A stretch of 64,000 nucleotides of DNA from a virus (Duplodnaviria; Heunggongvirae; Uroviricota; Caudoviricetes): IMG/VR virus record IMGVR_UViG_3300021255_002251. One strand, given 5' to 3'. Of this stretch, positions 19,054-56,243 are shown piece after piece. The position numbers and the translations under genes were made by a program. The notes under the pieces are model-generated. The model did not search any database. It was given only the letters and a program-made list of their open reading frames with translations, and was not told the origin of the DNA. Position 1 is the stretch's first letter; each line of letters starts with the position of its first letter.

Positions 19054-19890
19054 CTATCTTTTTTTAGCCAAATACTCCTTAAGATTGCTTGCTGGCATAG
19101 TGTTATCTTTTCTATATGGTATGTTAGCCACAAAATTCTTTGCGAAGTTCCTCTTTGCGGACACACATGAATCTGGGGCCTTCCCTAGAGAATTGAATGT
19201 CCTTCCGTCTAGCCTGTCTTCCGTCTCGACTTCAGATTCGACTTCACCCATATAATCTTTCAGAAACTTCTTGCTGTCGCATTGCTGCCCATACTCAATG
19301 GAGTCCATAGCGATGGTCATTCCGTCATCTTTGCCGCCCACAACTACGACCCCATCTCCTACCGCCACATACGGCTGCATGAAGTTGTCCTCCGTGACGG
19401 GGAAAGGATAGTAGTCCTTCTCCCTCTCAACCGCCTTGTCGTTCTGGCTCCATAGAATTTCTGGCAGCAATTCTTCGTTAAGTTCGGCATCTGGCATCTG
19501 CAGGAGAACCGGCATAGATGAGAAGCCGATGGACTTGAGCAGCATTCCGCGATGTCGTCCATCATGTCCTATCACCTTCCAGATTCCGTCCTCATTCTCT
19601 TTGCATATGAGATATGGAATGTCCCACTTTGTCGGCTTGCCCGCAAGAACATCCTTCTTGAACTCTTCCTGCGGTGCATGACGTTTCTCATCATCTTCGG
19701 GTATAGGCTCTGCCAGACCTAAGAACTCTTCTATCGGCATATCAACTATCTGTGCATAGCCCTTGTAGTTGCCGCTCTTTGGCTCTAGCCCCCATAGCAT
19801 AAATCCTTCTGGCGCAAAGAACCTATGGACAGGCATCCCCTCCACCTTGAGCCTAACCTGTTCGTCTTCGCAGAATGAAAAGAAGTTCAT
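19054..19890 (-). CDS. hypothetical protein (possible ParB-like nuclease fold)
   Basis: VIGHDGRHRGMLL loosely resembles the ParB/Srx dGxHR motif; weak. Confidence 0.35.
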   Translation of the reverse strand: MNFFSFCEDEQVRLKVEGMPVHRFFAPEGFMLWGLEPKSGNYKGYAQIVDMPIEEFLGLAEPIPEDDEKRHAPQEEFKKDVLAGKPTKWDIPYLICKENEDGIWKVIGHDGRHRGMLLKSIGFSSMPVLLQMPDAELNEELLPEILWSQNDKAVEREKDYYPFPVTEDNFMQPYVAVGDGVVVVGGKDDGMTIAMDSIEYGQQCDSKKFLKDYMGEVESEVETEDRLDGRTFNSLGKAPDSCVSAKRNFAKNFVANIPYRKDNTMPASNLKEYLAKKR

Positions 19891-19897
19891 ATCCTAT

Positions 19898-20080
19898 CTA
19901 CTCCGTTGGTCTAAATTCCCAGTATGTCGCATGTGAACCGCACTTAGTGCATGGGAAGAATCCATGTGTTTCATCGGACTTTATCTTCAAGTCCTTTGTT
20001 GTCACAAAGTAAACCTCTCCACATGTATTGCATTTGATTCTTACATGCCCATAAGGTATGTCTGTCTCTGACTTGACCAT
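19898..20080 (-). CDS. zinc-ribbon protein (CxxC...CxxC)
   Basis: KCNTCGEV....CTKCGSH. Confidence 0.4.
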   Translation of the reverse strand: MVKSETDIPYGHVRIKCNTCGEVYFVTTKDLKIKSDETHGFFPCTKCGSHATYWEFRPTE

Positions 20081-20089
20081 ACATCCTCC

Positions 20090-20875
20090 TCATCGGAAGA
20101 TTTGCTTGCCGGCGAAACCATTTCCCAGCATAGTGCTCTGTGGGTTCTCATATGCCCGTAGGGTCTTGTCGCTCTTCAATTCGTTCCACAGCGCTTCATA
20201 CGACTTGCGCGAATCGTAGTGTCGAAGAAGAGCATTTGTAAACTGCCCTCCTGTTGAAGCTCCATACGAATAGGTATCGTCAGGGCATCCGCTCCAGCAC
20301 AGCATCGAGAACTTCTGCTGCTCATTCAACCTATGATCCCACGATAGAGGTGGCCGAACCTTAAACCCAGGAGCGCGATACATCGTCTGCGAATGGCAAC
20401 AATCAAAGTATAGGAACACCCTCCCCTTGCTCTTGCTTATGATGCTCCATATCTCATTGTCTCGCATGTAAGTATCGTAGAGACATAGGAACTCATCCTT
20501 CCCGTCCACCTCTTCATTTCCAGTATTGTAAAACGGCTCGCTCCCTCCGTGTCCGGAATAGCAGAATATCACAAGCCCATCCGTTGCGCTTGCAATGGCC
20601 TTGTTCAATGCAGCCGTCACATTCGCTTTCGTGGCATTGGAATCTCTAAAGAGAACAATGTTCGGAGTATATGCCGATAGAAGCTTAAACATCCTATTCG
20701 CATCGTACCCCGCCCCCGGACAATCGCCAGCGAACCTCGAATTCTCCATACCAACAACCACCACATATGTGTTGGTTGATTTCGCTTCTGGCTGTATAGT
20801 TCCATCGGACTTGCATCCGCCGAATCCTAGACACATTCCAAACGCAACTAGAAATGCCATTACATGCTTCTTCAT
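20090..20875 (-). CDS. lipoprotein with caspase-like (peptidase C14) domain
   Basis: Lipobox MKKHVMAFLVAFGMCLGFGGC. Catalytic dyad context YSGHGG (His) and FDCCHSQ (Cys), as in caspase / metacaspase / CHAT folds. Confidence 0.55.
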   Translation of the reverse strand: MKKHVMAFLVAFGMCLGFGGCKSDGTIQPEAKSTNTYVVVVGMENSRFAGDCPGAGYDANRMFKLLSAYTPNIVLFRDSNATKANVTAALNKAIASATDGLVIFCYSGHGGSEPFYNTGNEEVDGKDEFLCLYDTYMRDNEIWSIISKSKGRVFLYFDCCHSQTMYRAPGFKVRPPLSWDHRLNEQQKFSMLCWSGCPDDTYSYGASTGGQFTNALLRHYDSRKSYEALWNELKSDKTLRAYENPQSTMLGNGFAGKQIFR

Positions 20876-20897
20876 CTTTCTGCTCTCCTTGCCTTCG

Positions 20898-21338
20898 TTA
20901 TTCCTTTGGCTCTGCTATCTGGTTTCCCTTCAAGTAAATGTAGATGTCTAAGTCCGTCCCGCCTCTCTCGTTATCCCTCGTGTCGACCTCTACACCATAC
21001 CCATTAGAGGAATTGTTTTTGGCTCCAATCTTTTCCAAGAAGTCCTCAAAGTAAGTCTGAAGGTCTTCCGCCGAAACATCTTCCTGCATTCCTGGTATCG
21101 CCATGTCGTAGCGAATGTATGTCTCATCCCCCATCTTCCCCTCATCTGGACTTCTATAGAACTTCTCTTCGAGAAGGTCTTCCTTTATGTCCAGCGGAGG
21201 AGCATAATCATCCAAGTAAGATACGAATGCCCTCTGTATGCTATCGGGATTCCATAGTTCGACTACTTCAGCAAGTTCGTCGAATGCCACAACCCCCGAT
21301 TGAGCATACAGATATGAGTAGAAATTCGTCTCTCCCAT
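20898..21338 (-). CDS. hypothetical acidic protein
   Basis: 146-aa ORF, Asp/Glu-rich. Confidence 0.4.
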   Translation of the reverse strand: MGETNFYSYLYAQSGVVAFDELAEVVELWNPDSIQRAFVSYLDDYAPPLDIKEDLLEEKFYRSPDEGKMGDETYIRYDMAIPGMQEDVSAEDLQTYFEDFLEKIGAKNNSSNGYGVEVDTRDNERGGTDLDIYIYLKGNQIAEPKE

Positions 21339-21417
21339 TATGTTTCTCTCCTGCTATACTTCATCGGCATTTTTCAAACAATGCCAATTTGTTAATAGCA
21401 GGTAAAATAAGGGGAGA

Positions 21418-22317
21418 CTAGAAAAGGAAGCCTTGGCTATATGTCTGTGCTTTCTCTTTTTCGGAGATATAATTCAGATAGAGGCTTTCAAACACCTCCT
21501 CCGTCCTGCCCTTTCCTAAGTATCTCTCGAAAGACGAATTCCCCGCATTGAGATATTCGTGGCGCTTATAAAGGCTTGTAGGAAGGTCGTATGTGCAATC
21601 CGTTTCACCCCGCTTGCCATCAAATGATAGAATCCATTTGCACTTGCGAGATGTTAGCCAATCGACAAAAGCATCAATATCTATACCTCCATAGTACATC
21701 TGCCTTTTGTGTACAGAAGCATACGGAGGGTCTAGGTAGAGGAAATCTTGGCATCTTGGTTCTAATGTTTCATATGATGCGCTCCGAAACTCTACAGACT
21801 TCGCCTTGAGAACTAAACTCCAGTCTCGACATATCTCTTTCAGTCGGACAGGGTGTATTCCGGGGCGTGAGAAATGACATGAATTATTGAACTCCCCCTT
21901 GTCGTTGTACCTCGGCATCCCATTTGTTGTAGTCCGCATTATGAAAAGGAAATCAATCGGGCTATGCTCTCTATTGTACCTGTCACGAATCGTATAGAAC
22001 ACTTCCTTTCTTCGCTCATAGTCCTCCTCACATAGCCCATGACGGTTGAATGCTTCCCACAATTCTCCATATCCATTGCATAGTTCGTCTGGATAGTCCC
22101 TTATCATGTTCCACAACCCGATAAGGTCTCTATTAACGTCAGATGCGACATATCTAGCGACCTTAACGGTAGGTGTATTAAGAAGACGATATAGTACGGA
22201 GCAGCCGCCACAGAACGGCTCATAATAGGTGGCAATCTCCCGTGGCATTCTGGCTACAATCTCCGCCGCTTGGCTTCGCTTGCTCCCGCTCCATTTGACT
22301 ATTGGCTCTAGTTGCAT
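21418..22317 (-). CDS. dam: DNA adenine methyltransferase, Dam / D12 class
   Basis: N-terminal KWSGSKRS (equivalent of Dam KWAGGK) and catalytic LYLDPPY. Its ATG shares the A at 22317 with the upstream gene's TAA stop. Confidence 0.85.
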   Translation of the reverse strand: MQLEPIVKWSGSKRSQAAEIVARMPREIATYYEPFCGGCSVLYRLLNTPTVKVARYVASDVNRDLIGLWNMIRDYPDELCNGYGELWEAFNRHGLCEEDYERRKEVFYTIRDRYNREHSPIDFLFIMRTTTNGMPRYNDKGEFNNSCHFSRPGIHPVRLKEICRDWSLVLKAKSVEFRSASYETLEPRCQDFLYLDPPYASVHKRQMYYGGIDIDAFVDWLTSRKCKWILSFDGKRGETDCTYDLPTSLYKRHEYLNAGNSSFERYLGKGRTEEVFESLYLNYISEKEKAQTYSQGFLF

Positions 22318-23138
22318 TAGAAAGCAAACTCCCCTTGGACAAGCCCCCTAATATCTATTGGCTTGTCATCCTTCGGCACGAATTCTCCCTTTAGTTCCGA
22401 ACTCTTCTCCGCCATCCCTTCCGCCATCAACCTTATCGGCATCCCATGCGCAAAGTAGCACGGAGTATACCACGGCCCCTCATACACTTCTCTCGAGAGA
22501 GAATCTTGGTGTGTGACTACAGCAGCATATCCTAGAAGAGAAAACTGGACATATGAAATGTAGCTCGCCGTAGGGTCTAAGTCTTCCCCATACAGAATCA
22601 AGTCGCATTGCCGACCGCCACTATCTATGAAAGCCTCCGCCGCTTCGATGAGCAATGCGCCGGCTCCGCAAGAGCAGTCGTTCATCCTTATTATCTTTCC
22701 AACCTTCGGGGCTTCACTAGCCATGGACATTCTCGCCATCATCCTAGCAATGCAATCGGGGGTTAGATACTGTCCAAAATGTTTGTTCGTTGCACTCAAT
22801 GCTTCATACACATGTCCTAGGAAATCGCTTCTCCTCAATTCTAGGGCCTGTACCACATAGGATAGCAGCACGGCAATCTTTCCCATTCCCTCATTGCCGT
22901 ATTTAGACACGAACGACATATACTGCTTTTCGATTTCTCCCTTTTCTTTTTCGTCCAGTGTCACAGCCCCGCTAATGGAAAGAGAGAATATCCTGCAGGC
23001 GTCGCAGAAAATAGTCCGCTGGTCTATGGACTGCGAGACGGAAGACAGAAGTTTTAGGAATGCCTTAAAGTATCCGTCCCAAGTTGTAGGCTCATCTACC
23101 TTGCGGACCGTCACCCCATTCTGCTGACTCTTTCTCAA
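22317..23138 (-). CDS. HsdM / N6_Mtase-family homolog lacking the catalytic NPPF/Y motif
   Basis: GQYLTPDCIARMMARM (motif X, GQ[FY]xTP) and DCSCGAGALL (motif I) are present. No NPPF/NPPY/DPPY follows. The ORF ends at a stop/start overlap with dam. Confidence 0.5.
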   Translation of the reverse strand: MRKSQQNGVTVRKVDEPTTWDGYFKAFLKLLSSVSQSIDQRTIFCDACRIFSLSISGAVTLDEKEKGEIEKQYMSFVSKYGNEGMGKIAVLLSYVVQALELRRSDFLGHVYEALSATNKHFGQYLTPDCIARMMARMSMASEAPKVGKIIRMNDCSCGAGALLIEAAEAFIDSGGRQCDLILYGEDLDPTASYISYVQFSLLGYAAVVTHQDSLSREVYEGPWYTPCYFAHGMPIRLMAEGMAEKSSELKGEFVPKDDKPIDIRGLVQGEFAF

Positions 23139-23542
23139 AACAATGTCTCCTCTTTGGGATTGACGTCGATCTCCTCTATCGTCTGCCCTATCTTGTCACC
23201 AAGCCATCTAGAAACAATATGACGATGACAGAATTTGTCAGGGGACTCATAACACATAAGCACCACTTTGTCTGTAGAACTCCTCTCTGCATACCTCCCC
23301 AATTTGAGCATGATTTCAGGTGCAGAAGCCATTGAAAGAATCTCCTTGTTGTACTTCTCTTCGTACACACCTGGATTGTTCTTCGCTCCAATGATTTCTC
23401 CTGTTGGCGCGAGGTCGGAAAGATACCATACAAGAAGGTCTTTGGAAAGAAACCATGGCCTAGTTCTCGCAATGCTTACAAGAGCATATCCCTTATCAGA
23501 ATATGCTTTCGCTTTTGCGAAATATCCAGTCCCGATTTTCAT
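23135..23542 (-). CDS. DUF488 (YeaO-like) family protein
   Basis: Collinear similarity to E. coli YeaO: ..KGYALVSIARTRPWF..LVWYLSDLAPTGEI...VVLMCYESPDKFCHRHIVSRWL.. Confidence 0.55.
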   Translation of the reverse strand: MKIGTGYFAKAKAYSDKGYALVSIARTRPWFLSKDLLVWYLSDLAPTGEIIGAKNNPGVYEEKYNKEILSMASAPEIMLKLGRYAERSSTDKVVLMCYESPDKFCHRHIVSRWLGDKIGQTIEEIDVNPKEETLF

Positions 23543-24330
23543 TCCTCACCCCCTTTAAGAAAAACTAGCCGTGCCTGCAGCCAAACTGGGACCTCCCTTC
23601 CCATAGCCACTATCTTCTCCGTATACCCAACATAATCAAAAGGCAACTGTCTCCACGTCACCCTTGGTATGGAATCGTCTATGATTGCATAAGTGCTATA
23701 CCTGCACAGTCTCGGATAACCAACGCTACCTACATTGAATATTGCCTCGCTCCATCCGTTTAGAGGTTGTGCAAGTCTTTTCCTAATACTTTTAGGTAAT
23801 GTCCCGTGGATAAGATTGCGGTCATCAGACGTGTTCCTTGCATACAACTCCGCTCCGTGAGTATGCCCTATGAAGAGAGCATCTATCCCGTTCTTGCGAA
23901 TCAAGTCCAGCTCCACTATTGCAGAGTAAATGGAGCCAATGTACCCGAACTGCTCCGGTATGGCATAGGTTCCGTGGCTAAATGCAACCTTTGTATCTCC
24001 AAACTGCTTCTCAATCTTGTACGGAAGGTTAGCTAGCCATTTCTTGTTCTCTTCCGTTACAAGTGGGCGATTAGATACAATGCCCTGTGCGGCATAGTGG
24101 TTGAACCAGTCAAGCGACAACTCACCTACAAGAGCAGCATCGTGGTTTCCCTTGATGCACTCTATGTCGTTCCGCTTGCAGATTTCGATGCACTCGTTCG
24201 GGTCGTATCCGTACCCAACGATGTCACCGCAGCAGATGATGTTCTTGCACCCTAGCCGCCTAGCGGAGTTGATTGCTCTCCGAAAGGCGGCAGGGTTTGC
24301 ATGAATGTCGCTAAAAACGGCTGTCTTCAC
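23539..24330 (-). CDS. calcineurin-like metallophosphoesterase (Ser/Thr phosphatase-like)
   Basis: Motifs FSDIHAN, GDIVGYG, GNHD, GHTH. Confidence 0.8.
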   Translation of the reverse strand: MKTAVFSDIHANPAAFRRAINSARRLGCKNIICCGDIVGYGYDPNECIEICKRNDIECIKGNHDAALVGELSLDWFNHYAAQGIVSNRPLVTEENKKWLANLPYKIEKQFGDTKVAFSHGTYAIPEQFGYIGSIYSAIVELDLIRKNGIDALFIGHTHGAELYARNTSDDRNLIHGTLPKSIRKRLAQPLNGWSEAIFNVGSVGYPRLCRYSTYAIIDDSIPRVTWRQLPFDYVGYTEKIVAMGREVPVWLQARLVFLKGGEE

Positions 24331-24641
24331 TTTGCTGGTTCTCCGTCCTCTAGTTCCTCATGCTGCCGCCACATATATGCCTCTTCAAGGAGCGACTTCA
24401 CCTCATCGTCAACGATAGACTCATCAACACCACGACACTTTGCCTCGAACTTGATGTAGTGTTCCGCTTTCTTTAAATCCTTCTCTTCGGATTCTCCGTC
24501 CTTGCATCCTGCTCGCCAAAGGTACTTCAAAGCAGAACCTTTGTTAAAGTTAAGCCCCTTCTCATATATGAAGTCCTCGAGGTACTTCCCGCAAGGAAGC
24601 AAATAATACGTTGTATTGTTTATTTGGGCTGCCGATGCCAT
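24327..24641 (-). CDS. DUF3310-like phage protein
   Basis: KYLWRAGCKDGE...DLKKAEHYI resembles the DUF3310 consensus. Confidence 0.45.
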   Translation of the reverse strand: MASAAQINNTTYYLLPCGKYLEDFIYEKGLNFNKGSALKYLWRAGCKDGESEEKDLKKAEHYIKFEAKCRGVDESIVDDEVKSLLEEAYMWRQHEELEDGEPAK

Positions 24642-24825
24642 TTTACTTTTCTCCTTGTTTGATTGCAGAAATCACATCCCTTATGCACCTATGCACAACA
24701 TCCTTTGCCCACTGACAGTTGAAGATATAGCACAACAGTACAAAAGACACAACCGCTGTCAAGCATCCAAAGCAACTGCATCCGCAGTTTATGGTAGAAG
24801 GCTTTCTCATCTCTTCTTCCATCTG

Positions 24826-26136
24826 TCAAGCTCCAACTCTTTCTGTTACCAAGTTCCCGTTATGGCAGAGCAACTTGCACTTGCTCATGGCTTTCACAAT
24901 TGTCTTCCCCTCATCGCTACGGCTAAGACACACTCTGTTATCTGACCCTTTTACTGACGATACTATATATATAACTCCGTTGAACTTGACAGTATCCCAA
25001 AGAGAGAATCCACGAATCCTTCCGCTCATCTTTTGAGGTCTCCTATATCCGCACTTTAGTTCTTTAGCGGTCATCTTACTTTTGTCCTTGATTGACTTTG
25101 GAGACAAAATCGTGTTGTCATGCAGATTCCTCCTATGCCTTCTTCTCTGATACAGACGATAGACATTATATGAATTGAGAAGTGCATTAAAATTCCCTGC
25201 TATGCAGAAAGAATCGTTTCTGTGGCTTTTCTCGACATTGTGTTCCCTCCGTGCCATCGCAGTCTCATACCCATAGGTGAACTCTACTGGAGTCTTCCAA
25301 GAATTATGCACAAGTTTATCAATCAGATATTTTCGCATGGAATTCATATGTGCCTCATTTTTGTGTATAGGCGGTCTCTTAAACTTCAACACCTTCTTCT
25401 TCTGGTGATGGGATTCGTGGCATTCGTGGCACAAAGTCACCACATTGTCTGGAGAATTGCTACCGCCATCCGCCCTACGGCGGATATGATGCACCTCTAA
25501 CCTTACGGACTTGTCCTTATATGGACTTGCACCGCACACTCGGCATTTGTTCCCGTCCCGCCACTTGGCATAGGATTTCAAATTCTCCCATCCTTCCAAT
25601 GCGCCTTGCTGATACTCTTCTCCTTTGATTGATGGATTCTGTATCTTTTGAGTATCAAACTTTCCAATCTCCACACGTAATCTGCTTACTGGCAGAATCT
25701 TTCTTACGAACTCTATTGCTCGTATGTGAGAATCAGCCTTATGCTTCACAGACGGCGGGAGAGAAGCATTTCTTTCTTCGTTCGCCCTGTTCGCCCACCT
25801 CGCAGGCCTATACCAGTTGTGCTTTCTTCCTCGTCTCCCCCTCCGCATTTCCCTACGGGCAGTCAATAGATTAGACACATCATCCCGTATCTCAACTTGC
25901 GCAGAGTATAGTTCCTTCTTTTCTGTTGATGCAGTCATCCCGATGTGCTTGCTTCCAACATCGACGCCAAGAGTAACTTCTTGACGATGATGGAAACTAT
26001 CGCAAAGAAGTCGAATGGTAAAAGGCTCTCGCCGTACTACCTTCGCCCTCTTATGCTTTAGAGAATATGCAACCCACCCGAACCGTTTGGTCGGCATTAG
26101 AGGTTTGCCCTCTTTATCCTGTACGTATACTAGCAT
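24826..26136 (-). CDS. iscB: IscB-like RNA-guided nuclease (PLMP-RuvC-HNH; OMEGA / Cas9-ancestor family), 436 aa
   Basis: N-terminal VYVQDKEGKPLMPTKRFGWVAYSLK (PLMP domain). RuvC-I TLGVDVGSKHIGMTAS. Arginine-rich bridge helix ARREMRRGRRGRKHNWYR. RuvC-II-like RLRVEIGKFD. HNH CRVCGAS...LEVHHIRRRADGGSNSPDNVVTLCHECHESHH. RuvC-III KSHRNDSFCIAGN. A C-terminal beta-rich domain follows. Confidence 0.8.
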   Translation of the reverse strand: MLVYVQDKEGKPLMPTKRFGWVAYSLKHKRAKVVRREPFTIRLLCDSFHHRQEVTLGVDVGSKHIGMTASTEKKELYSAQVEIRDDVSNLLTARREMRRGRRGRKHNWYRPARWANRANEERNASLPPSVKHKADSHIRAIEFVRKILPVSRLRVEIGKFDTQKIQNPSIKGEEYQQGALEGWENLKSYAKWRDGNKCRVCGASPYKDKSVRLEVHHIRRRADGGSNSPDNVVTLCHECHESHHQKKKVLKFKRPPIHKNEAHMNSMRKYLIDKLVHNSWKTPVEFTYGYETAMARREHNVEKSHRNDSFCIAGNFNALLNSYNVYRLYQRRRHRRNLHDNTILSPKSIKDKSKMTAKELKCGYRRPQKMSGRIRGFSLWDTVKFNGVIYIVSSVKGSDNRVCLSRSDEGKTIVKAMSKCKLLCHNGNLVTERVGA

Positions 26137-26460
26137 TCTTTTTTCTGTGTCTTACTTTTTTTGTTAACCGATTTCTCGGTAAGTCACCAGTCAGATTACT
26201 CCTTCTGGTGTTTGGTGCCCATCGGAGGGTTGCAGAGAGTTTCCTTTGTTCGATGCACACACTGTTCCTCTACCACAGAACTGTTTAATGTACATCCGCA
26301 GTGCGGCAAACTTGGACAACTATTCGCCGGTGCCTATGCATTTCCCTGTAACTTCTACTAGGTTTTCTGTTTCTTTCGTTTCCTTTCTAGTCTCCTAGTT
26401 GAACTATCCTTGCGGATTCCCGAAAAAATTAGTTGAAATAAAGCCTCTTGCAGGTTCTAG
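26137..26460 (-). ncRNA. putative omegaRNA / tracrRNA-like scaffold between the CRISPR array and iscB
   Basis: 324-nt region with no credible ORF, located where IscB omegaRNAs sit (5' of the ORF). It contains an imperfect anti-repeat at about 26397-26430: the minus-strand RNA AAUUUUUUCGGGAAUCCGCAAGGAUAGUUCAAC is complementary to the first ~20 nt of the minus-sense repeat GUUGGAACUACCUCCCGAAA. Confidence 0.45.
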
Positions 26461-26760
26461 GTTGTAAATGGTGTGATTTCGGGAGGTAGTTCCAACTTGG
26501 ATTCGGGCGGACGATTCCTCCTTCCGGTTGTAAATGGTGTGATTTCGGGAGGTAGTTCCAACTTGGCCCTCCTGAACGGCGGGCGGCTCCGCGTTGTAAA
26601 TGGTGTGATTTCGGGAGGTAGTTCCAACATAGACCGCCTTATAATATTCCTGCTCGTTGTTGTAAATGGTGTGATTTCGGGAGGTAGTTCCAACCGTGTG
26701 CCCTAGCGGACGGTTGTATTGGTCGTTGTAAATGGTGTGATTTCGGGAGACATCTCCAAC
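26461..26760 (-). CRISPR. mini CRISPR array: 5 x 36-bp repeats (GTTGTAAATGGTGTGATTTCGGGAGGTAGTTCCAAC on the plus strand), 4 x 30-bp spacers; the repeat at 26725-26760 is degenerate
   Basis: Repeats at 26461-26496, 26527-26562, 26593-26628, 26659-26694 are identical; 26725-26760 differs in its last 11 nt (gggagacatctccaac). Spacers at 26497-26526, 26563-26592, 26629-26658, 26695-26724. The strand is assigned to match iscB and the anti-repeat. Confidence 0.85.
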
Positions 26761-26766
26761 GAACAA

Positions 26767-27270
26767 CTATCTCCCTGTACTTCCAAAACCTCCTTCCCCA
26801 CGCTCTGTTTGGGATACTGCTTCTATCTCCACGGGAACGCATAGTGTCACAGGAGCAAGAACCAACTGTGCTATGCGGTCTCCCTTGTGGATTGTCTTAT
26901 GAAACTCTTCATCATTAGACTTCGGCAAATACTCAAAAATTCTAGTTCTCCCATCAAGATGCGAGTTATACACCACTGTCTGCGGAGACCACATCAGAAT
27001 TATACCAATTTCCCCTGTATATCCGCTATCAACTGTCCCTGGGGCATTGAATACCGTGATTCCTTCCTTCAAGGCAAGTCCGCTCCGTGGTCTTACCTGA
27101 ATCTCATACCCAGTTGGAATTTCAGCAATCAAGCCAGTCTTTACAAGTGTCGGAGTGAAAGGATTAAGTTTCACATCCTCCACCGCACAAACATCCATTC
27201 CAGAATCCCCAATATGGGCATATAATGGGAGTTTAGCATCAGGGTGTACCTTCTTGAATCCTAGTTTCAT
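26767..27270 (-). CDS. dut: dUTP diphosphatase
   Basis: GDSGMDVCAV and GTVDSGYTGEIGIIL dUTPase motifs. SD AAGGAG 8 nt upstream. Confidence 0.85.
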   Translation of the reverse strand: MKLGFKKVHPDAKLPLYAHIGDSGMDVCAVEDVKLNPFTPTLVKTGLIAEIPTGYEIQVRPRSGLALKEGITVFNAPGTVDSGYTGEIGIILMWSPQTVVYNSHLDGRTRIFEYLPKSNDEEFHKTIHKGDRIAQLVLAPVTLCVPVEIEAVSQTERGEGGFGSTGR

Positions 27271-27276
27271 TTTATT

Positions 27277-27477
27277 TCACTCCTTCTCCAGATATTCTCT
27301 CAATTCATCTGCGGTATCCTTTGCAGAGCCGGTAGTCTTTCCAGTCTCCCAGAAATCCTCAAACTTCCCCTTGGCCCCGTTCTTCTGCCAAATACCATAG
27401 ACTACCTTTACGAGTTCACCCTTCGTGTCTCGCTCGATATTACCCCATTTCCATCCGCCTTCAACTTTATGTGGCAT
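27277..27477 (-). CDS. small hypothetical protein
   Basis: 66-aa ORF. Confidence 0.3.
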   Translation of the reverse strand: MPHKVEGGWKWGNIERDTKGELVKVVYGIWQKNGAKGKFEDFWETGKTTGSAKDTADELREYLEKE

Positions 27478-33471: not shown

Positions 33472-34656
33472 TTAGTCTTCCTGCTTCATCAAATAGCGGT
33501 TGCTTACCGCCTTGAATGAAAGATTATGGATTGTATTGCTCTTGAAAACAATCCCCTCACGCTCATTCCCCCTAGCCGTCTTGCCCTCTGCGAACATAAG
33601 GACTGCATCCATGGTAGGATATTCCGTGAATACCTTTATAGACGGGCTAATGAGCTGAACATGTTGCAACCCAAGTTTCTCACACACTTCGCGCCGGTTA
33701 TTGGGAAGCAAATACATCTGGTTCTTGATGTCGTAAATCTTGAATACATGCCATTCATGTTCCTGATACTTGTCTCTATCGGCATTTATGCCTGGTCCAA
33801 CCAGTTCTCCTTGAATCGCATATTCAAGTCCTTCGGACTCAAATAGGTTCTTCAACTTCTTCTCGACATCATACTTCTCTGCCATCTGATACCCGAGAGG
33901 AATCCCGCCTTTTGCAAGTTCCGACTTGATTCGAAGATTCCTAGTGCAAACGCCAAAAGGTATTTCAGCATCAATGGTAGGAGAGTAAAACATCGTAAGA
34001 GAAGCCCCGTCATCTTTGGCAGTTGCTTCCCAGTCCATGTCTTTGTACTTCTCAAACCAGTCACTGAGATTCTGAACCCTTTCCTCATCAGTCTTAGGGC
34101 AATAGTCAGATGGGAACCTACCAATTGCATCTGCACTAATCGGATTACTGCCAGTTATCGGTTGTAACTGCTCTTTCACCTCATCATAATGTTCTACCTT
34201 AAGCAGCCTTGTAACATCTGCCCCCAACAATGGCTGTAGAACAAATTGTCCGTTATCAGTCTCCAAGGCTATCGTATCCGTGCCGTCTCCTTTAATCCCT
34301 CCCCCCTGACAACAATAGGCGATTTCGGGAAAGTCTGATATCGGCATGACAAGTCCCTGCGACACAACTCCACGCAACTTGCATGTCTTTATCCTTATGC
34401 CTTGGCGAATAACGTTCCCGCTCTTGCTAACGAACTTCTTTAAGCATCTGTCTTTTAGGAATGCATATCGGGCATCAGAATCATCAAGAAACGAATCTAT
34501 CTCAAAATACACGGCTAAGTCGCCAACATGAAACTCTCCTTTCTGGGTAACAACCTTCCAGCCCTTACCTTTCATCTCGACCCCCTCTAGGCGGTCGGCA
34601 TTTTCTATTGGCGAAACCTTACTGATTTCAACTATGCTCGCTAGTTTTCTAGACAT
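33472..34656 (-). CDS. ATP-dependent RNA ligase with N-terminal OB-fold tRNA-binding-like domain
   Basis: N-terminal KLASIVEISKVSPIENADRLEGVEM...VGDLAVYFEIDSFL (Myf/EMAP-like). Nucleotidyltransferase motif I KDDGAS (KxDG). Motif IV/V EGIVFK. Confidence 0.6.
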   Translation of the reverse strand: MSRKLASIVEISKVSPIENADRLEGVEMKGKGWKVVTQKGEFHVGDLAVYFEIDSFLDDSDARYAFLKDRCLKKFVSKSGNVIRQGIRIKTCKLRGVVSQGLVMPISDFPEIAYCCQGGGIKGDGTDTIALETDNGQFVLQPLLGADVTRLLKVEHYDEVKEQLQPITGSNPISADAIGRFPSDYCPKTDEERVQNLSDWFEKYKDMDWEATAKDDGASLTMFYSPTIDAEIPFGVCTRNLRIKSELAKGGIPLGYQMAEKYDVEKKLKNLFESEGLEYAIQGELVGPGINADRDKYQEHEWHVFKIYDIKNQMYLLPNNRREVCEKLGLQHVQLISPSIKVFTEYPTMDAVLMFAEGKTARGNEREGIVFKSNTIHNLSFKAVSNRYLMKQED

Positions 34657-49773: not shown

Positions 49774-49944
49774 AGGCGGGGTGTACTAGCATCTCCCAAG
49801 AAGGTGGAAGAGACATAGGAACACCGGCTGCCCAAAGAAGAGAAAAGGAGCGGGAAGTATTTTCATTGATTAACAGTCAAGTGCCCAAAGGGCTTAATAG
49901 GAACTTCCTATGCTCAAAAAACCGTGTGCGATGTGTATGTCTAG

Positions 49945-50018
49945 TCAATCGCTCTACCACCTGAGCTACACGAACAGCTAAGCCGTCCATGGCAGGACTC
50001 GAACCCGCGACTAATTGA
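49945..50018 (-). ncRNA. permuted tRNA-like unit 1: 3' half (T-arm 49992-50008, acceptor-3' 49985-49991), 9-nt linker, 5' half (acceptor-5' 49969-49975, D-arm 49950-49968)
   Basis: In the minus-strand RNA the order is TCAAT-TAGTC-GCGGGTTCGAGTCCTGC-CATGGAC-G-GCTTAGCT-GTTCGTG-TA-GCTCAGGTGGTAGAGC-G-ATTGA. The acceptor strands pair 7/7 (GTTCGTG with CATGGAC, including G-U pairs) and the anticodon-stem halves pair 5/5 (ATTGA with TCAAT), but only in permuted order. Confidence 0.35.
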
Positions 50019-50264
50019 TTTCAGAAATAGGAACACAATATGCACACCTATGGTAAACGGCGAGAAGTATCTGAACCGAAAGAAGCCTGTGGCTTCTTGA
50101 TGGAGTCGAACCATCAAGTAATAGGAACTTCCTATGCCGTAAAATCAACAGAGACGGAGAGTAAATGACACATGGTTGTTGCCACGTGCTTCGTTCGCAG
50201 CGAATGATAGGAACTCTCGATGTCTCTAAAATGAACATGAAAACGAAAAGCGGCGGAATGTATT

Positions 50265-50338
50265 ATAAGGCGCTCTACCACTGAGCTAAATGGAGGCATA
50301 AGCCATCCACTACGGGATTCGAACCCGCGACCTCCTGC
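50265..50338 (-). ncRNA. permuted tRNA-like unit 2 (same 3' half, 9-nt linker, 5' half architecture)
   Basis: CCCGT-AGTGGAT-GGCTTATGC-CTCCATT-TA-GCTCAGTGGTAGAGCG. The acceptor pairs 6/7; the linker has the same length and the same GGCTTA start as unit 1. Confidence 0.3.
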
Positions 50339-50568: not shown

Positions 50569-50641
50569 TGAAACCAGATGGACTCGAACCACCTCCTTCC
50601 AACGATTAATTGGAAATGCTTTCCTGTTACACCATGGTTTC
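50569..50641 (-). ncRNA. tRNA-like gene with an unusual anticodon loop (UUAAUCG) and no encoded CCA
   Basis: Acceptor GAAACCA / TGGTTTC pairs 7/7. T-arm GGTGG-TTCGAGT-CCATC. The anticodon stem TCCAA/TTGGA encloses TTAATCG, which has a pyrimidine at position 37; the anticodon assignment is ambiguous. Confidence 0.35.
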
Positions 50642-50867
50642 ACGTGGGAACTTTCCGAGTACCCAAAACTCCTGTTCCTTTGCGATACATGCGGTCTCTG
50701 ATATCTCCCAAGCCGAGCTTCCAGAAACAACTTGTAAACACCCATCGCATGAACAGCCTATCTCTTCAGTGGACCGTCACCGGATTAGCACCGTGCTGCC
50801 AGACCTATCGTTGCATGCTTGATTAGCACCCCTTGTACTTCGGGGCCGAACAGCCTGACTCTAAAGA

Positions 50868-50942
50868 TGGAGCAAGATGCCGAACTCGCATCGGCGTAAA
50901 CTACCTTGGAAGGGTAGCGCATAACTTCTCTGCCAATCTTGC
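50868..50942 (-). tRNA. tRNA-Gly(TCC)
   Basis: Cloverleaf by hand. Acceptor GCAAGAT/ATCTTGC, anticodon arm CTACC-CTTCCAA-GGTAG, T-arm GCCGA-TGCGAGT-TCGGC, CCA encoded. Confidence 0.7.
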
Positions 50943-50947
50943 AAAAA

Positions 50948-51022
50948 TGGAGCGAACTACGGGATTCGAACCCATGACCTCATCCTTGGCAAGGATACGT
51001 ACTACCACTGTACTAAGTCCGC
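50948..51022 (-). tRNA. tRNA-Gly(GCC)
   Basis: Acceptor GCGGACT/AGTTCGC (G4-U69), anticodon loop TTGCCAA, T-arm ATGGG-TTCGAAT-CCCGT, CCA encoded. Confidence 0.8.
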
Positions 51023-51113
51023 ATTTGCCCCTTATCCCACCACTTTCAGCGGGGGCTACCTCGTTTCCTCATATAGACCGACAGAGCGGGACTCCGGCGG
51101 AGAGGCTTCTAAA

Positions 51114-51189
51114 TGGAGCGACAGATGGGTTACGATCCCACGACATCAACCTTGGGAAGGTTGCACTCTACCAACTGAGTTACTGTCGC
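51114..51189 (-). tRNA. tRNA-Gly(CCC)
   Basis: Acceptor GCGACAG/CTGTCGC, anticodon arm CAACC-TTCCCAA-GGTTG, CCA encoded. Confidence 0.8.
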
Positions 51190-51196
51190 ATGAAAT

Positions 51197-51276
51197 TGGT
51201 GGAACCGATGGGAGTCGAACCCACTATTTGTCTGCTTGCAAAGCAGATGCCTTTACCACACTCGAGCCACGGCCCC
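51197..51276 (-). tRNA. tRNA-Ala(TGC)
   Basis: Acceptor GGGGCCG/CGGTTCC with G3-U70, anticodon arm TCTGC-TTTGCAA-GCAGA, CCA encoded. Confidence 0.75.
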
Positions 51277-51587
51277 ATTGAAAATGTTTACCAGCGGTTC
51301 TCAGATGCTTTTAGTTTTGTGGTATCGCATCCACAAACTTCAACCGCAGTCATAGCATCATTAGGCTCTTGGATTCGATAGGCATACATCCCATTCGGGC
51401 ATCGCTACCGTTCATGCCTAAAGTTTGGTTCTGCCTTACACGTTTCCTGCAAGGTGGAATCCAATGGTATGCAGAATTTAGCCTTTTGAGCCTATCTGCG
51501 TCTCGCCGCAATGTGAAATCCATCACTACAATGAGGAGCGACATCAAGGTCGGGACTCTTGTTGTTTGAACTAATACCATCAGAAAT

Positions 51588-51661
51588 TGGTGGACACGTT
51601 GAGAATCGAACTCAAGTCTTCTCGTTGCGAACGAGATGTTCTACCACTGAACTAGCGGCCC
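51588..51661 (-). tRNA. tRNA-Ala(CGC)-like; acceptor stem imperfect
   Basis: D-arm, anticodon arm TCTCG-TTCGCAA-CGAGA and T-arm TTGAG-TTCGATT-CTCAA are canonical. G3-U70 is present, but the 5' GGGCCGC versus 3' CGTGTCC strands leave three mismatches at positions 5-7. Confidence 0.45.
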
Positions 51662-51804
51662 ATGAAAATAAAGGACGATTGTCAAGAAGGACATCGTATT
51701 TCCATTAATGCCCATCACGTTTTCTTTCCCCAACTATTCACCCCAACGAAATCATTGGAATTGGGAAATGATAAACACTGATTTTGTCACAACCGCCATG
51801 GAAA

Positions 51805-51878
51805 TGGTGGACACGGCAGGAATTGAACCTGCATCTCTTCTCTGCCAGAGAAGCATTCTACCGTTGAACTATCGGCCC
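51805..51878 (-). tRNA. tRNA-Ala(GGC)-like; acceptor stem imperfect
   Basis: Anticodon arm CTTCT-CTGGCAG-AGAAG, T-arm GCAGG-TTCAATT-CCTGC, G3-U70 present. 5' GGGCCGA versus 3' CGTGTCC gives the same mismatch pattern as the Ala(CGC) gene. Confidence 0.45.
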
Positions 51879-51891
51879 ATTGAAATCGTTT

Positions 51892-51968
51892 TGGTGGACC
51901 CTGTAGGGAACGATCCTACAACCGTCTGGGTATGGGCCAGATGCTCTAACCAATTGAGCTAAGGGTCC
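51892..51968 (-). tRNA. tRNA-Met/Ile2(CAT), elongator type
   Basis: Acceptor GGACCCT/AGGGTCC (G1-C72 paired), anticodon loop CCCATAC, CCA encoded. Confidence 0.8.
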
Positions 51969-51973
51969 GAAAT

Positions 51974-52051
51974 TGGTCGGAGTGGAGGGATTCGAACCCC
52001 CGACGTTCTGCTCCCAAAGCAGACGCTCTGGCCAGGCTGAGCTACACTCCG
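51974..52051 (-). tRNA. tRNA-Pro(TGG)
   Basis: Acceptor CGGAGTG/CACTCCG, anticodon arm TCTGC-TTTGGGA-GCAGA, CCA encoded. Confidence 0.8.
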
Positions 52052-52056
52052 CTTGA

Positions 52057-52128
52057 AGCCCCCTGTCGGAAACGAACCGACGACCTCCATCTTACCAAGA
52101 TGGCATTCTACCACTGAACTAAGGGGGC
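52057..52128 (-). tRNA. tRNA-Thr(GGT)
   Basis: Acceptor GCCCCCT/AGGGGGC, anticodon arm CCATC-TTGGTAA-GATGG, no encoded CCA. Confidence 0.8.
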
Positions 52129-52131
52129 GTC

Positions 52132-52206
52132 TGGAGCCCCCGCCTAGACTCGAACTAGGAAATCCACTGTACGAAAGTGGCGGTTTTCCATTACACCTAC
52201 GGAGGC
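52132..52206 (-). tRNA. tRNA-Thr(CGT)
   Basis: Acceptor GCCTCCG/CGGGGGC (one G-U pair), anticodon arm CCACT-TTCGTAC-AGTGG, CCA encoded. Confidence 0.75.
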
Positions 52207-52214
52207 AAGTCTCA

Positions 52215-52302
52215 TGGAGCCAAGGAGCGGATTTGAACCGCTGTGTCCTTTCGGAGCGGGTGTACAAAACCCGTGCAATCAGCCAGACTATGCGACCTTG
52301 GC
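52215..52302 (-). tRNA. 88-nt tRNA with long variable arm (type-II-like) and apparent anticodon TGT (Thr)
   Basis: Acceptor GCCAAGG/CCTTGGC. A perfect anticodon stem CGGGT/ACCCG encloses TTTGTAC. A 14-nt extra arm CTCCGAAAGGACAC follows. T-arm AGCGG-TTCAAAT-CCGCT, CCA encoded. Confidence 0.5.
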
Positions 52303-52307
52303 AAAAT

Positions 52308-52382
52308 TGGCGGGGCTAGCGGTAATCGAAACCACATCAGTAGCTTAGAAGGCAACTGCTCTATCCGTTGAGCTATAGCCCC
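52308..52382 (-). tRNA. tRNA-Arg(TCT)
   Basis: Acceptor GGGGCTA/TAGCCCC, anticodon loop CTTCTAA, CCA encoded. Confidence 0.75.
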
Positions 52383-52391
52383 TCTTTGAAA

Positions 52392-52468
52392 TGGTGCGGG
52401 AGACTGGAATCGAACCAGCAACCTACAGTTTAGGAAACTGCCGCTCTGTCCGATTGAGCTACACCCGC
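52392..52468 (-). tRNA. tRNA-Arg(CCT)
   Basis: Acceptor GCGGGTG/CTCCCGC (one U-U mismatch), anticodon arm GCAGT-TTCCTAA-ACTGT, CCA encoded. Confidence 0.75.
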
Positions 52469-52470
52469 AT

Positions 52471-52548
52471 TGGTGAGGCTAGTGAGAATCGAACTCACAC
52501 AAGTCCTACCTTCGGAGGGTAGCGCTCTCTCCATTGAGCTATAGCCTC
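52471..52548 (-). tRNA. tRNA-Arg(CCG)
   Basis: Acceptor GAGGCTA/TAGCCTC, anticodon arm CTACC-CTCCGAA-GGTAG, CCA encoded. Confidence 0.8.
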
Positions 52549-52551
52549 TTC

Positions 52552-52627
52552 TGGTAGGGACGGACGGAATCGAACCGCCGACATATTCCGTGTAAAGGAA
52601 TCGCTCTGCCACCTGAGCTACATCCCC
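52552..52627 (-). tRNA. tRNA-Val(TAC)
   Basis: Acceptor GGGGATG/CGTCCCT (two G-U pairs), anticodon arm ATTCC-TTTACAC-GGAAT, CCA encoded. First gene of the array downstream of promoter 53101-53139. Confidence 0.8.
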
Positions 52628-54140: not shown

Positions 54141-56243
54141 CTACCCTCTAGGAGGAAGTTGTGGTTGTGCCTGAGGAACTTGTTGCGGCTGCTGGGCCTG
54201 TGCTTGAGGTTGTTGCCCCTGCTGTACCTGTGGCTGCTGCTCGGCTGGTGCTGGTACTTCCTGCCCAGTCTTCTTAAGGAAGTCCCTCATCACGCTCTTG
54301 AAAATTTCGTCGTTCTTCTGGACTTCTGGCGGCAGTTCTGGTGGAGGCTGTTCTCCTCCCTGACCAGGGATCCCGCCTCCCATGCCGCCGTCCATCCCTC
54401 CCGGCATTCCGGGCATTCCTCCTTGTTGGGCTGATGGGTCTTTTGCTTCCTCTATCTTGGTGAGGATTTCTGGAATGTCTGTCGGAATCGTCTGGAAAGC
54501 TGGGAGATTCGTCTTGCGGAGCATCGCACGACCTTCCGCAATGTCAATGAGTCCGGTATTGATAAGGTGAGCAACATACTGTGCCGTCTGCGAACTCATC
54601 TGTGCAACTTCGGACTCCTTCGGAACGTCGATAGGATTCCATTCTATGTCTAACTTCATGTCATCCTTGTCTGGATAGTTCGACGCACAATAAAGTTCGT
54701 AGAACATCTTGCACAAAGGAGTATAGTCGTTATTCTGGATAGCCTTTAGAGATTGGGCATAGTCGTCCCATTCGTATTGTCCTGTTGCCTGCAAGCCAGA
54801 AGGAACGTTTTTCAGCAACTTAGTGACAGGAATCTGTGCAATGGCAGCAACCAACTGATACTGCGACATCGTAAGAGGTGTGAGTTCCGACAGGTTCGTA
54901 TCCAACTGCGTCACGTTCGAAGACGGCTTCTTCACGAATATGGAGAAGTTGTCGCGGAAGAAGTTTATGGCATTGAAGAACTTGTTTGTACGGGCTGGGT
55001 CTGACTGCAACTGCTCAAGGTTTCCGTCTGCAATCAAAAGCCTCTTTGTCATTGCTAGGAGCGGTGCTTCATTAGCCAGTTTGTCCGCGGCCCACACTCT
55101 TTCATAAATCATCTGCGTCAAAGACAGTCCGCCATAGAGATACACCGGCTTGAAGATGTCAGGCAACTCGGAGTTTATTTTCCTTATAACCCAAGAGCGG
55201 TGGACTCTCTCTTCTCCTACCTTTATCCATGTAGGCTCTAGGAAGTGCGGTGAGAGTGGATTGGTTCGGCTGTCCTTGTCCCACTGGTAAGTAAGCCAGT
55301 GAGGGTCTATGACTGCAAAACCTTTGAACGAACCTGGTTTTATGGCTTTAGGATCGTAAGGGTCTGCATAGCTATATGGGGTTTTACCTGACTTGTCTGA
55401 TGGAGATCTATAATCATCCCTAAACTTCACCCATGGGATTGCGACACCAACGCCAAACACCTTCTTCTTGTAGTTTAGACGAATACATGCTTCGTTCAAC
55501 CCCATCCTATCGGCGGCTTTCTTAATCTCCGTCAGGAAATCTGCTTCCGCAGCATCATGCTCGTTGCTATGTTCATGCTTTGTAGATGAGCAGACGACCT
55601 TGTAACCATGTGCCATGGCATCTTCTGCAGGAATCATGCAGGCACGATTCACAAACTCATGTGTTGCTATGATTGCGCATCCCGTATATGTAATCCAAAT
55701 ACGAGATTGGAAGTGCTTGAGAACTCTTGGATTTATCGGGAAGCGTAGAAGAGGGTCTGGAAGCATCGCAAATCCGCCACCCTCTAACCCAGCATGAAGC
55801 CCCTGCCGTGGCGGATAACATCTCTGAGAACTTCTCGGAACGGCTCCCGGAAGATTTCCGCTTATGTTTCTCGGAAGAACGGACGGCTTTCCCGTAGGCA
55901 CACCATCTCCCTTTCCTCCAGTAACATCGTCCATCGTTGGGACGCTCATATCAACCATGTCGGTTTTTATGGGGAATGGGTCAACACCATCCTGTACCGC
56001 CTTGAAGAAGTCTGTAAGTCTGACTGGAAACAACTTGTCGATTGCCTCGGTGTACTCCTCATCCGTCATGGCGGATTCATCCATTACAGGGAACTCTCCA
56101 GAACCAGAATCAGGAGAGAACCCTATGCCGTCCTCGATAGCCTTCCTCATCTTCTGGATAGCAGATGGCTCACCCTCCGACCTCCCATGCTTCTTGTATT
56201 TCGGCTGGTCTTTCTTGCTACCTTTATGGAATAATCCGAACAT
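54141..56243 (-). CDS. large virion-type protein, possibly the portal; C-terminal Gly/Pro/Gln-rich low-complexity tail
   Basis: 700 aa. The central region is of portal-like size and composition. The C-terminal GGMPGMPGGMDGGMGGG...QQPQAQAQQPQQ tail is low-complexity. The assignment is tentative. Confidence 0.4.
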   Translation of the reverse strand: MFGLFHKGSKKDQPKYKKHGRSEGEPSAIQKMRKAIEDGIGFSPDSGSGEFPVMDESAMTDEEYTEAIDKLFPVRLTDFFKAVQDGVDPFPIKTDMVDMSVPTMDDVTGGKGDGVPTGKPSVLPRNISGNLPGAVPRSSQRCYPPRQGLHAGLEGGGFAMLPDPLLRFPINPRVLKHFQSRIWITYTGCAIIATHEFVNRACMIPAEDAMAHGYKVVCSSTKHEHSNEHDAAEADFLTEIKKAADRMGLNEACIRLNYKKKVFGVGVAIPWVKFRDDYRSPSDKSGKTPYSYADPYDPKAIKPGSFKGFAVIDPHWLTYQWDKDSRTNPLSPHFLEPTWIKVGEERVHRSWVIRKINSELPDIFKPVYLYGGLSLTQMIYERVWAADKLANEAPLLAMTKRLLIADGNLEQLQSDPARTNKFFNAINFFRDNFSIFVKKPSSNVTQLDTNLSELTPLTMSQYQLVAAIAQIPVTKLLKNVPSGLQATGQYEWDDYAQSLKAIQNNDYTPLCKMFYELYCASNYPDKDDMKLDIEWNPIDVPKESEVAQMSSQTAQYVAHLINTGLIDIAEGRAMLRKTNLPAFQTIPTDIPEILTKIEEAKDPSAQQGGMPGMPGGMDGGMGGGIPGQGGEQPPPELPPEVQKNDEIFKSVMRDFLKKTGQEVPAPAEQQPQVQQGQQPQAQAQQPQQVPQAQPQLPPRG

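Follow-up and report, generated by a model that had tools for sequence, protein, structure and literature searches.

CRISPR-associated IscBs with a repeat/anti-repeat ncRNA are already known and have been experimentally validated. As far as the summary in PMC11610941 conveys, Altae-Tran et al. 2021 (Science 374:57) found that a few IscBs are CRISPR-associated and traced the tracrRNA to the omegaRNA; several small IscB branches were reported to have gained CRISPR association independently (PMC10734277). For DelIscB (457 aa), the ncRNA was described as containing spacers, repeats, and an anti-repeat; the hairpin formed by its DR and anti-repeat could be replaced by GAAA with activity retained, and processing of the ncRNA into two RNAs was stated to be an open question (PMC12660989). 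It was also reported that more than 16% of HEARO/IscB-bearing fragments are classed as viral or prophage-derived (PMC9755519).

Here, a locus of this type was analysed in a 64,000-nt stretch of phage DNA (IMG/VR record IMGVR_UViG_3300021255_002251; the whole stretch is called the window below), and it is a new phage-borne case. It has the layout of a CRISPR-associated IscB: array, anti-repeat, and omegaRNA-like ncRNA share the strand of iscB and lie immediately 5' of it. As in the systems of Altae-Tran 2021 and DelIscB, a short array with no adaptation genes beside it is followed directly by a compact IscB gene, the intervening ncRNA is composed of an anti-repeat followed by an omegaRNA-like scaffold with a pseudoknot, and the DR/anti-repeat duplex forms a long hairpin that is shortenable to a tetraloop. 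Compared by description, DelIscB differs in its length (457 aa versus 436 aa here), in its loop (~100 nt were removed from it, versus a 52-nt loop here), and in its source, which was an aquatic sample, whereas the present locus resides in a large phage (contig up to 271 kb) and has array-bearing relatives that include cattle-rumen assemblies.

The locus was also compared with two better-known kinds of guide RNA. With HEARO (RF02033) and OgeuIscB (7UTN, 7XHT) it shares its strand, its position 5' of iscB, the core fold, the pseudoknot, the 3' hairpins, and a guide expected immediately 5' of P1; however, P1 is split here: the 5' strands of its closing stem and helix A lie apart from the scaffold and recur in each of the five array repeats. 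Like type II crRNA:tracrRNA systems, it combines 36-nt unstructured repeats and ~30-nt spacers with an anti-repeat predicted to pair with the 5' portion of the repeat after a spacer, and with a RuvC/HNH nuclease that would bind the scaffold. In contrast to type II Cas9 systems, the effector is IscB-sized and without a REC lobe, the duplex consists of two 8-9 bp helices around a three-way junction where Cas9 systems have a single long helix, the ~260-nt scaffold is a complete omegaRNA, and neither cas1, cas2, nor csn2 was found among the ORFs scanned.

The IscB gene and its phage context

The iscB ORF (24826..26136, minus strand) encodes a protein of 436 aa with PLMP, RRXRR/RuvC-I, HNH, and RuvC-III regions. 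Pfam matches were obtained for RRXRR (PF14239, 1.9e-53, residues 3-178) and HNH (6e-10, residues 198-245), the GKPLMPT motif was present in the translation, and residues D59, E156, H216/H217, H305, and D308 were invariant across 30 homologues. The best relatives of solved structure were IscB chains (E ~1e-38), and OgeuIscB structures matched at E ~4e-38. The protein displays the features by which IscBs are recognised, namely PLMP/RRXRR with RuvC-I and a bridge helix, an HNH domain within a split RuvC, the catalytic residues, a length of about 400-500 aa, and no REC lobe. A Cas9 would be expected to possess a REC lobe and at least ~700 aa, and Cas9-like chains gave only weak, incomplete matches (YnpsCas9, 1e-14). 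The predicted protein is an intact IscB.

Portal, primase, NrdD, RecE-like, RecT, RusA, and terminase genes, together with at least 15 tRNA genes, mark the window as phage DNA, and an identical IscB was found on contigs of up to 271,425 bp. When the locus was compared by blastn with INPHARED, no match was obtained. Genes flanking the array and iscB are all on the same strand; the dUTPase ORF upstream of the array lies at 27270..26767 (minus strand; Pfam 1.4e-22). Within 24700-27400, neither an intrinsic terminator nor a promoter matching the sigma-70 consensus, which may not be that of the host, was predicted. Termination between the array and iscB, which the preliminary description had named as an outcome that would count against a continuous guide RNA, was thus not predicted, and the absence of both elements fits transcription that reads through from phage genes lying upstream. 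Array, scaffold, and iscB probably share such a transcript.

Several other features of this phage and its relatives were recorded. Downstream of iscB (19054-24641, minus strand) are genes for a DUF3310 protein, a metallophosphatase, a DUF488 protein, two DNA N6-adenine methyltransferases, and a caspase-domain (Peptidase_C14) protein; the related contig L003 has the same gene order downstream of iscB through the D12 methyltransferase, where the contig ends. An RNA ligase (PF09414) is encoded at 33472-34656. On the minus strand, 49920-50048 and 50265-50336 gave sub-threshold matches to YrlA (Y RNA-like; 40.4 and 33.8 bits, against a gathering score of 69) and adjoin a cluster of at least 16 tRNA genes at 50569-52627. 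Some huge-phage IMG/VR contigs carry two to four IscB genes each, such as IMGVR_UViG_3300045988_158001 (248 kb; L093, L095, L102, L111); these are 36-40% identical to the window IscB, and all are without arrays.

The repeat-spacer array and related loci

The CRISPR-like array occupies 26461..26760 (minus strand). It contains five 36-nt repeats (GTTGGAACTACCTCCCGAAATCACACCATTTACAAC) starting at 26760, 26694, 26628, 26562, and 26496, and four unique 30-nt spacers (26724..26695, 26658..26629, 26592..26563, and 26526..26497). Repeats 2-5 are identical, and only the first (26725..26760) deviates; its four mismatches at nt 7-12 fall inside the strand that would pair with the anti-repeat. Because no spacer lies 5' of this first repeat, guide function is not needed there. 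When folded as RNA, a lone repeat was practically unstructured (-1.6 kcal/mol). The element has the hallmarks of a CRISPR array, in that at least three near-identical direct repeats alternate with unique spacers of uniform length whose content varies between related loci.

For comparison, ~135 related loci were retrieved. Among these, the array-bearing clade was narrow, comprising the window, L003/L123 (IscB 90-100% identical to that of the window), L004 (74%), L005 (73%), L132, and L133/L134; the L003/L123 contigs break inside the last repeat, and L133/L134 are cluster mates of L005. Array-less relatives with IscB identities of 56-78% were L001, L002, L006, L007, L009, L052, L120, L121, and L129-L131, and IscB relatives at 66-68% identity were without arrays. 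Five other array loci, with IscBs 73-90% identical to that of the window, share a common layout of array, linker, anti-repeat, scaffold, and iscB, with 36-nt repeats and 29-31-nt spacers. As a separate observation, L121:3001-5649 and L122 encode a truncated IscB of 342 aa (72% identical) with a full omegaRNA in a 75-kb phage-like contig, directly upstream of Y1 TnpA and TnpB (IS200/IS605 genes).

Spacer content was then considered across the array loci, which have 4-6 spacers per array. The 22 spacers are 29-31 nt long, with one of 22 nt, and nearly all differ between loci; the sole shared one (L005:2379-2408 versus L132:1990-2019) is 27/30 identical, with three mismatches, and occupies different array positions. 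The GC content of the spacers showed no consistent departure from the phage background. A fixed four-spacer array, as suggested by the first three loci, was dropped as a candidate feature because L132 has six spacers. Protospacers for the 22 spacers were found neither in the window nor in the ~135 retrieved loci when up to 6 mismatches were allowed, nor in INPHARED, and a search of IMG/VR with three spacer patterns also found none. No Pfam match to cas1 or cas2 was obtained in the 25 window ORFs scanned, which included all those of >100 aa within 5 kb.

The array begins 6 nt past the dUTPase stop codon, and in 3/3 arrays examined the degenerate first repeat abuts or overlaps the stop codon of the upstream ORF (window 26725-26770, L004:2389-2424, L005:2343-2378). 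The upstream gene differs per array locus, being the dUTPase in the window and unknown ORFs elsewhere, and no leader is seen. The block of array, scaffold, and iscB behaves as a movable module with its left edge inside repeat 1. A search for an empty site by dUTPase synteny found none.

An omegaRNA-like scaffold upstream of iscB

Non-coding sequence of ~260 nt runs from the anti-repeat to the iscB ORF. The preliminary description had placed a guide scaffold on the iscB strand, continuous with the 5' region of iscB, and a covariance search bore this out: the omegaRNA/HEARO core scaffold (Rfam RF02033) was matched at 26210..26404 (minus strand) with 66.9 bits and an E value of 4e-13, under the gathering score of 83, and it was the only HEARO match in an Rfam scan of the window. 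The conserved core fold includes a pseudoknot between GGAG (26395..26392) and CUCC (26227..26224). Past the end of the Rfam model, two 3' hairpins (26210..26185 and 26180..26167, minus strand) lie directly upstream of the iscB start. In an alignment of 13 loci (the window and 12 relatives) that extended from the 3' strand of the closing stem to the start codon, compensatory changes were detected in 25 of 59 consensus pairs, including GGAG/CUCC and the two 3' hairpins (columns 199-224 and 229-242). These data support a scaffold with conserved fold and pseudoknot, on the iscB strand and upstream of iscB.

The relatively low score was instructive. All seven array-less relatives scanned (L001, L002, L006, L007, L009, L120, and L121) contained a full HEARO of 97-117 bits, whereas the array loci scored 67-71 bits. 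According to the Rfam structure line, P1 of the array-less RNAs is a three-way junction of a closing stem (GUCAacua...uaguUGAC), hairpin A, and hairpin B. In the window, the match aligned model positions 53-211, and positions 1-52 shrank to GUU[1]AAC; scores in the array loci are low because the 5' strands of the closing stem and of hairpin A are absent in cis. These missing P1 5' strands were found in every CRISPR repeat, both in the window and in five array-bearing relatives. Moreover, the repeat is similar over its first 16 nt to the consensus at the HEARO 5' end (AACUACC.CCC versus GUCAacuaCCCC). In the last repeat (26461..26496, minus strand), nt 1-9 (26496..26488) would form the 5' strand of the P1 closing stem and nt 13-20 (26484..26477) that of helix A. 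Taken together with the pairing described below, these data lead us to conclude, with a probability of roughly 0.85, that the IscB guide RNA has its body encoded at 26425..~26167 (minus strand), as an omegaRNA with a split P1 whose 5' strands come from the repeats.

Predicted pairing between repeat and anti-repeat

Both the sequence and the positions given in the preliminary description proved accurate. On the minus strand, the last full repeat (26496..26461) is followed by 30 nt at 26460..26431 and then by AAUUUUUUCGGGAAUCCGCAAGGAUAGUUCAAC at 26430..26398. The anti-repeat (26398..26425, minus strand) reads UUUCGGGA-AUCCGCAAGGAU-AGUUCAAC. Its first part, UUUCGGGA (26425..26418), is complementary to repeat nt 13-20 (UCCCGAAA) and would be the 3' strand of helix A; its last part, AGUUCAAC (26405..26398), is complementary to repeat nt 1-9, GUUG(G)AACU, and would be the 3' strand of the closing stem. 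The intervening 12 nt (26417..26406) are self-folding and form hairpin B, AUCC-GCAA-GGAU, with a GCAA cap. Thus, of the crRNA:tracr-like duplex with bulges envisaged previously, the pairing with the first ~20 nt of the repeat was upheld, and what had appeared to be bulges corresponds to the conserved hairpin B of a three-way junction.

Folding predicted the repeat/anti-repeat duplex and its junction, as the preliminary description had proposed to check. The dimer of repeat and anti-repeat had an MFE of -20.2 kcal/mol, compared with -9.5 +/- 2.6 kcal/mol for shuffled anti-repeats, 2 of 1000 of which were as low, and the MFE fold of 26526..26137 made the same pairs in cis. When a single guide was designed from repeat nt 1-20, GAAA, and the anti-repeat, it folded to the same junction as the P1 of the array-less L121. 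In alignment with the reverse complement of the repeat, the anti-repeat performed better than shuffles (about 2%), whereas in direct orientation the same segment was not better than shuffles (17%). The segment therefore follows the reverse complement of the repeat and is not a copy of it, in contrast to the earlier suggestion that 26397-26430 represents a decayed sixth repeat.

Energy alone could not decide the matter. In a plain duplex scan of the 64-kb window, two unrelated sites (~-22 kcal/mol) matched the score of the anti-repeat; these complements of the repeat 5' end, taken to be chance matches, lie at 54850-54912 (plus strand) and 20381-20437 (minus strand), one of them antisense within the portal gene. 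Whole-window duplex energy was dropped as a stand-alone test, as the inserted hairpin is penalised and chance sites score alike. Significance accordingly rests on position, since the anti-repeat sits where the 3' strand of the omegaRNA P1 belongs, on conservation in five related array loci, and on limited co-variation. The anti-repeat was placed homologously to HEARO model positions ~30-63. By sequence and folding, it has the organisation of a tracrRNA, in which complementarity to the repeat is followed by an effector-binding scaffold, and it would be the 3' half of a split omegaRNA P1 used like the anti-repeat of a tracrRNA.

Co-variation was examined among the array loci. Between the window type and the L004 type, a U21->C change in the repeat is paired with U->G in the anti-repeat, and where the repeat has G5->U, the anti-repeat has gained an A at the facing position. 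Repeats of the same array differ at just two positions, nt 13 (junction) and nt 15 (C->U, with a G.U pair kept). Cross-combinations of repeat and anti-repeat folded nearly as well as cognate ones, and the intermolecular covariation is thin because there are only two distinct anti-repeat versions. The repeat and anti-repeat thus appear to change together to a modest and limited extent. A MAFFT alignment of the joined repeat and anti-repeat with cis P1s gave an alternative homology, in which CGGGAAUCCG of the anti-repeat was placed against the inner hairpin B, so base-by-base compensatory evolution between the cis hairpin A and the split helix A is not claimed.

These observations bear on two explanations in which the repeats would have no functional tie to the adjacent scaffold. 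The first holds that the complementarity arose by chance and that the array is either a relic or part of a different CRISPR system, of host or phage. The two sites of similar duplex energy, the absence of cas genes among the 25 window ORFs scanned, and the lack of protospacers in the collections searched are what it would predict. It is nonetheless very improbable, given that five further loci, with other genes upstream, carry the module, that repeat and anti-repeat change together, that the anti-repeat takes the place of the HEARO P1 3' strand, and that the cis 5' strand is missing in array loci only. The second is that the array is an RNA decoy (RNA anti-CRISPR), in which phage repeats mimic a host repeat and sequester host Cas9/tracrRNA. 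A phage context and type II-like geometry (36-nt unstructured repeat, 30-nt spacers) would suit a decoy; however, unique, turning-over spacers would be unneeded, and the neighbouring IscB scaffold is complementary to the repeats and varies together with them, so this explanation too seems highly unlikely. Both are further weakened by the searches for the repeat itself: no array with the repeat pattern GTTGNAACTACCNCCCGAAA was found in GTDB (185,579 species genomes) or in IMG/VR; in both, only single matches occurred, at about the number expected by chance. The exact anti-repeat pattern was likewise not found in IMG/VR.

The linker and the position of the guide

The linker between the last repeat and the anti-repeat (26426..26460, minus strand) is made up of the 30 nt of 26460..26431 plus AAUUU, and would be the helix A loop in the cis form, where the loop between the paired part of the repeat and the anti-repeat measures 52 nt. 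It is near-identical in L004, L005, L132, and L133 although their spacers all differ, and 26/37 positions are identical between the window and L004. Since the linker is kept where spacers turn over, it is not a spacer.

In its second reading, the preliminary description had taken 26431-26460 as a spacer-like segment in front of a decayed sixth repeat (26397-26430). On that reading, 26460..26431 would act as guide in an ordinary single-guide omegaRNA. Two features make such a reading attractive: the anti-repeat ends 63 nt past the last repeat in the window and 66 nt past it in L004, close to the 66-nt period of the array, and CAAC ends both repeat and anti-repeat. The same spacing, however, also fits the split-P1 model, with the last repeat as the original omegaRNA 5' end and the linker as an expanded helix A loop. 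In addition to the orientation result given above and the conservation of the 30-nt segment between loci whose spacers are all different, the geometry argues against a guide at this position. In an omegaRNA, the guide must lie 5' of the repeat-derived P1 strand, so that 26460..26431 cannot serve as guide; here the segment is followed by the 3' strand of helix A, and no P1 5' strand stands between the supposed guide and the scaffold. We consider the sixth-repeat reading to have a very small chance of being correct. In the predicted structure, 26460..26431 is a conserved loop or linker and not a guide, and the guide of the cis form would be spacer 4 (26526..26497).

Proposed guide use in cis and in trans

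With the split-P1 omegaRNA as the preferred reading, a working mechanism can be outlined. A spacer together with the 5' part of its repeat would pair with the anti-repeat and thereby rebuild the P1 junction. The predicted fold indicates that the last repeat can also close P1 in cis, so the last unit would pair across the 52-nt loop with spacer 4 as guide, and the other units may pair in trans, as in crRNA:tracrRNA. The 3'-terminal ~16-20 nt of the spacer, a length that we infer, would be positioned as the IscB guide, and IscB would cut matching DNA adjoining a TAM.

How many units are used is the point on which another reading has some force. It may be that the last unit alone is functional as a cis-only single guide, and that the upstream units are either a reservoir that is drawn on through repeat-repeat recombination or inert. 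RNase III substrates in type II systems are ~20 bp or longer. The repeat/anti-repeat helices are short, 8-9 bp each and split by the junction, which counts against RNase III-type processing of the putative transcript. The MFE fold closes P1 in cis, each transcript would have one scaffold for four spacers, and in the case of DelIscB the native ncRNA was both described and engineered as a single molecule carrying a long DR/anti-repeat hairpin (PMC12660989). On the other side, the four full repeats are identical over the paired 20 nt, and the sole spacerless repeat is the degenerate one, with its changes exactly in the pairing strand, which points to selection for pairing in each unit that carries a spacer; five loci, moreover, maintain arrays of 4-6 unique spacers. 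We regard cis-only function as unlikely, albeit with appreciable weight, and favour use of every spacer-bearing unit of the split-P1 RNA.

A related locus presents a natural juxtaposition of the two forms. L132:1755-5747 (cattle-rumen STEW19-1_SAMEA5384001 scaffold_439, 56 kb) contains tandem IscB genes; the first is associated with an array of seven repeats and six spacers plus an anti-repeat, and the second, ~600 nt downstream, with a complete cis omegaRNA whose core scaffold is near-identical to that of the first. Cross-use of RNA between the two IscBs is conceivable.

Origin and significance of the array-bearing clade

In the literature reached, neither a large-phage carrier nor an array clade nested among array-less phage IscBs was found. 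Such nesting suggests a separate origin, and the clade may have arisen independently of the published cases.

One array-less relative displays a suggestive duplication. At L120:2622-2760 (ENA ERZ28018712 k141_2623515; a 21-kb phage contig with portal, RecT, and YqaJ), an ordinary omegaRNA is accompanied by an extra copy of its own first 36 nt. The extra copy, 31/36 identical, starts 67 nt upstream and so creates one 'repeat' and one 31-nt 'spacer'; the locus resembles a proto-array with a single spacer and a 36/30 geometry like that of type II. Such a duplication was present in 1 of 11 distinct array-less loci tested.

It is tempting to suppose that, in this clade and independently of the published cases, an ordinary omegaRNA recently gave rise to an array and to a tracrRNA-like anti-repeat. 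On this account, the repeat would be the first 36 nt of the omegaRNA, copied with each ~30-nt spacer insertion in the 36/30 geometry of a type II Cas1-Cas2, with Cas1-Cas2 acting in trans from the host. The account is supported by a series that runs from array-less sisters (66-78% IscB identity), through the L120 locus with its extra 36-nt copy 67 nt upstream, to arrays whose 4-6 spacers turn over. We put it forward tentatively, at somewhat less than even odds.

For practical purposes, the locus offers a 436-aa nuclease and a single-guide design composed of a guide (16-20 nt), repeat nt 1-20 (GUUGGAACUACCUCCCGAAA), GAAA, and 26425..~26150. CRISPR-associated IscBs are the few systems in nature that stand between transposon OMEGA systems and Cas9, and the present locus bears on how a single omegaRNA became a crRNA/tracrRNA pair. 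It maps, nucleotide by nucleotide, which parts of P1 went to the repeat and which to the anti-repeat, with array-less relatives and the one-spacer L120 available for comparison. In its large-phage setting, the system could serve in competition between phages or in attack on the host.
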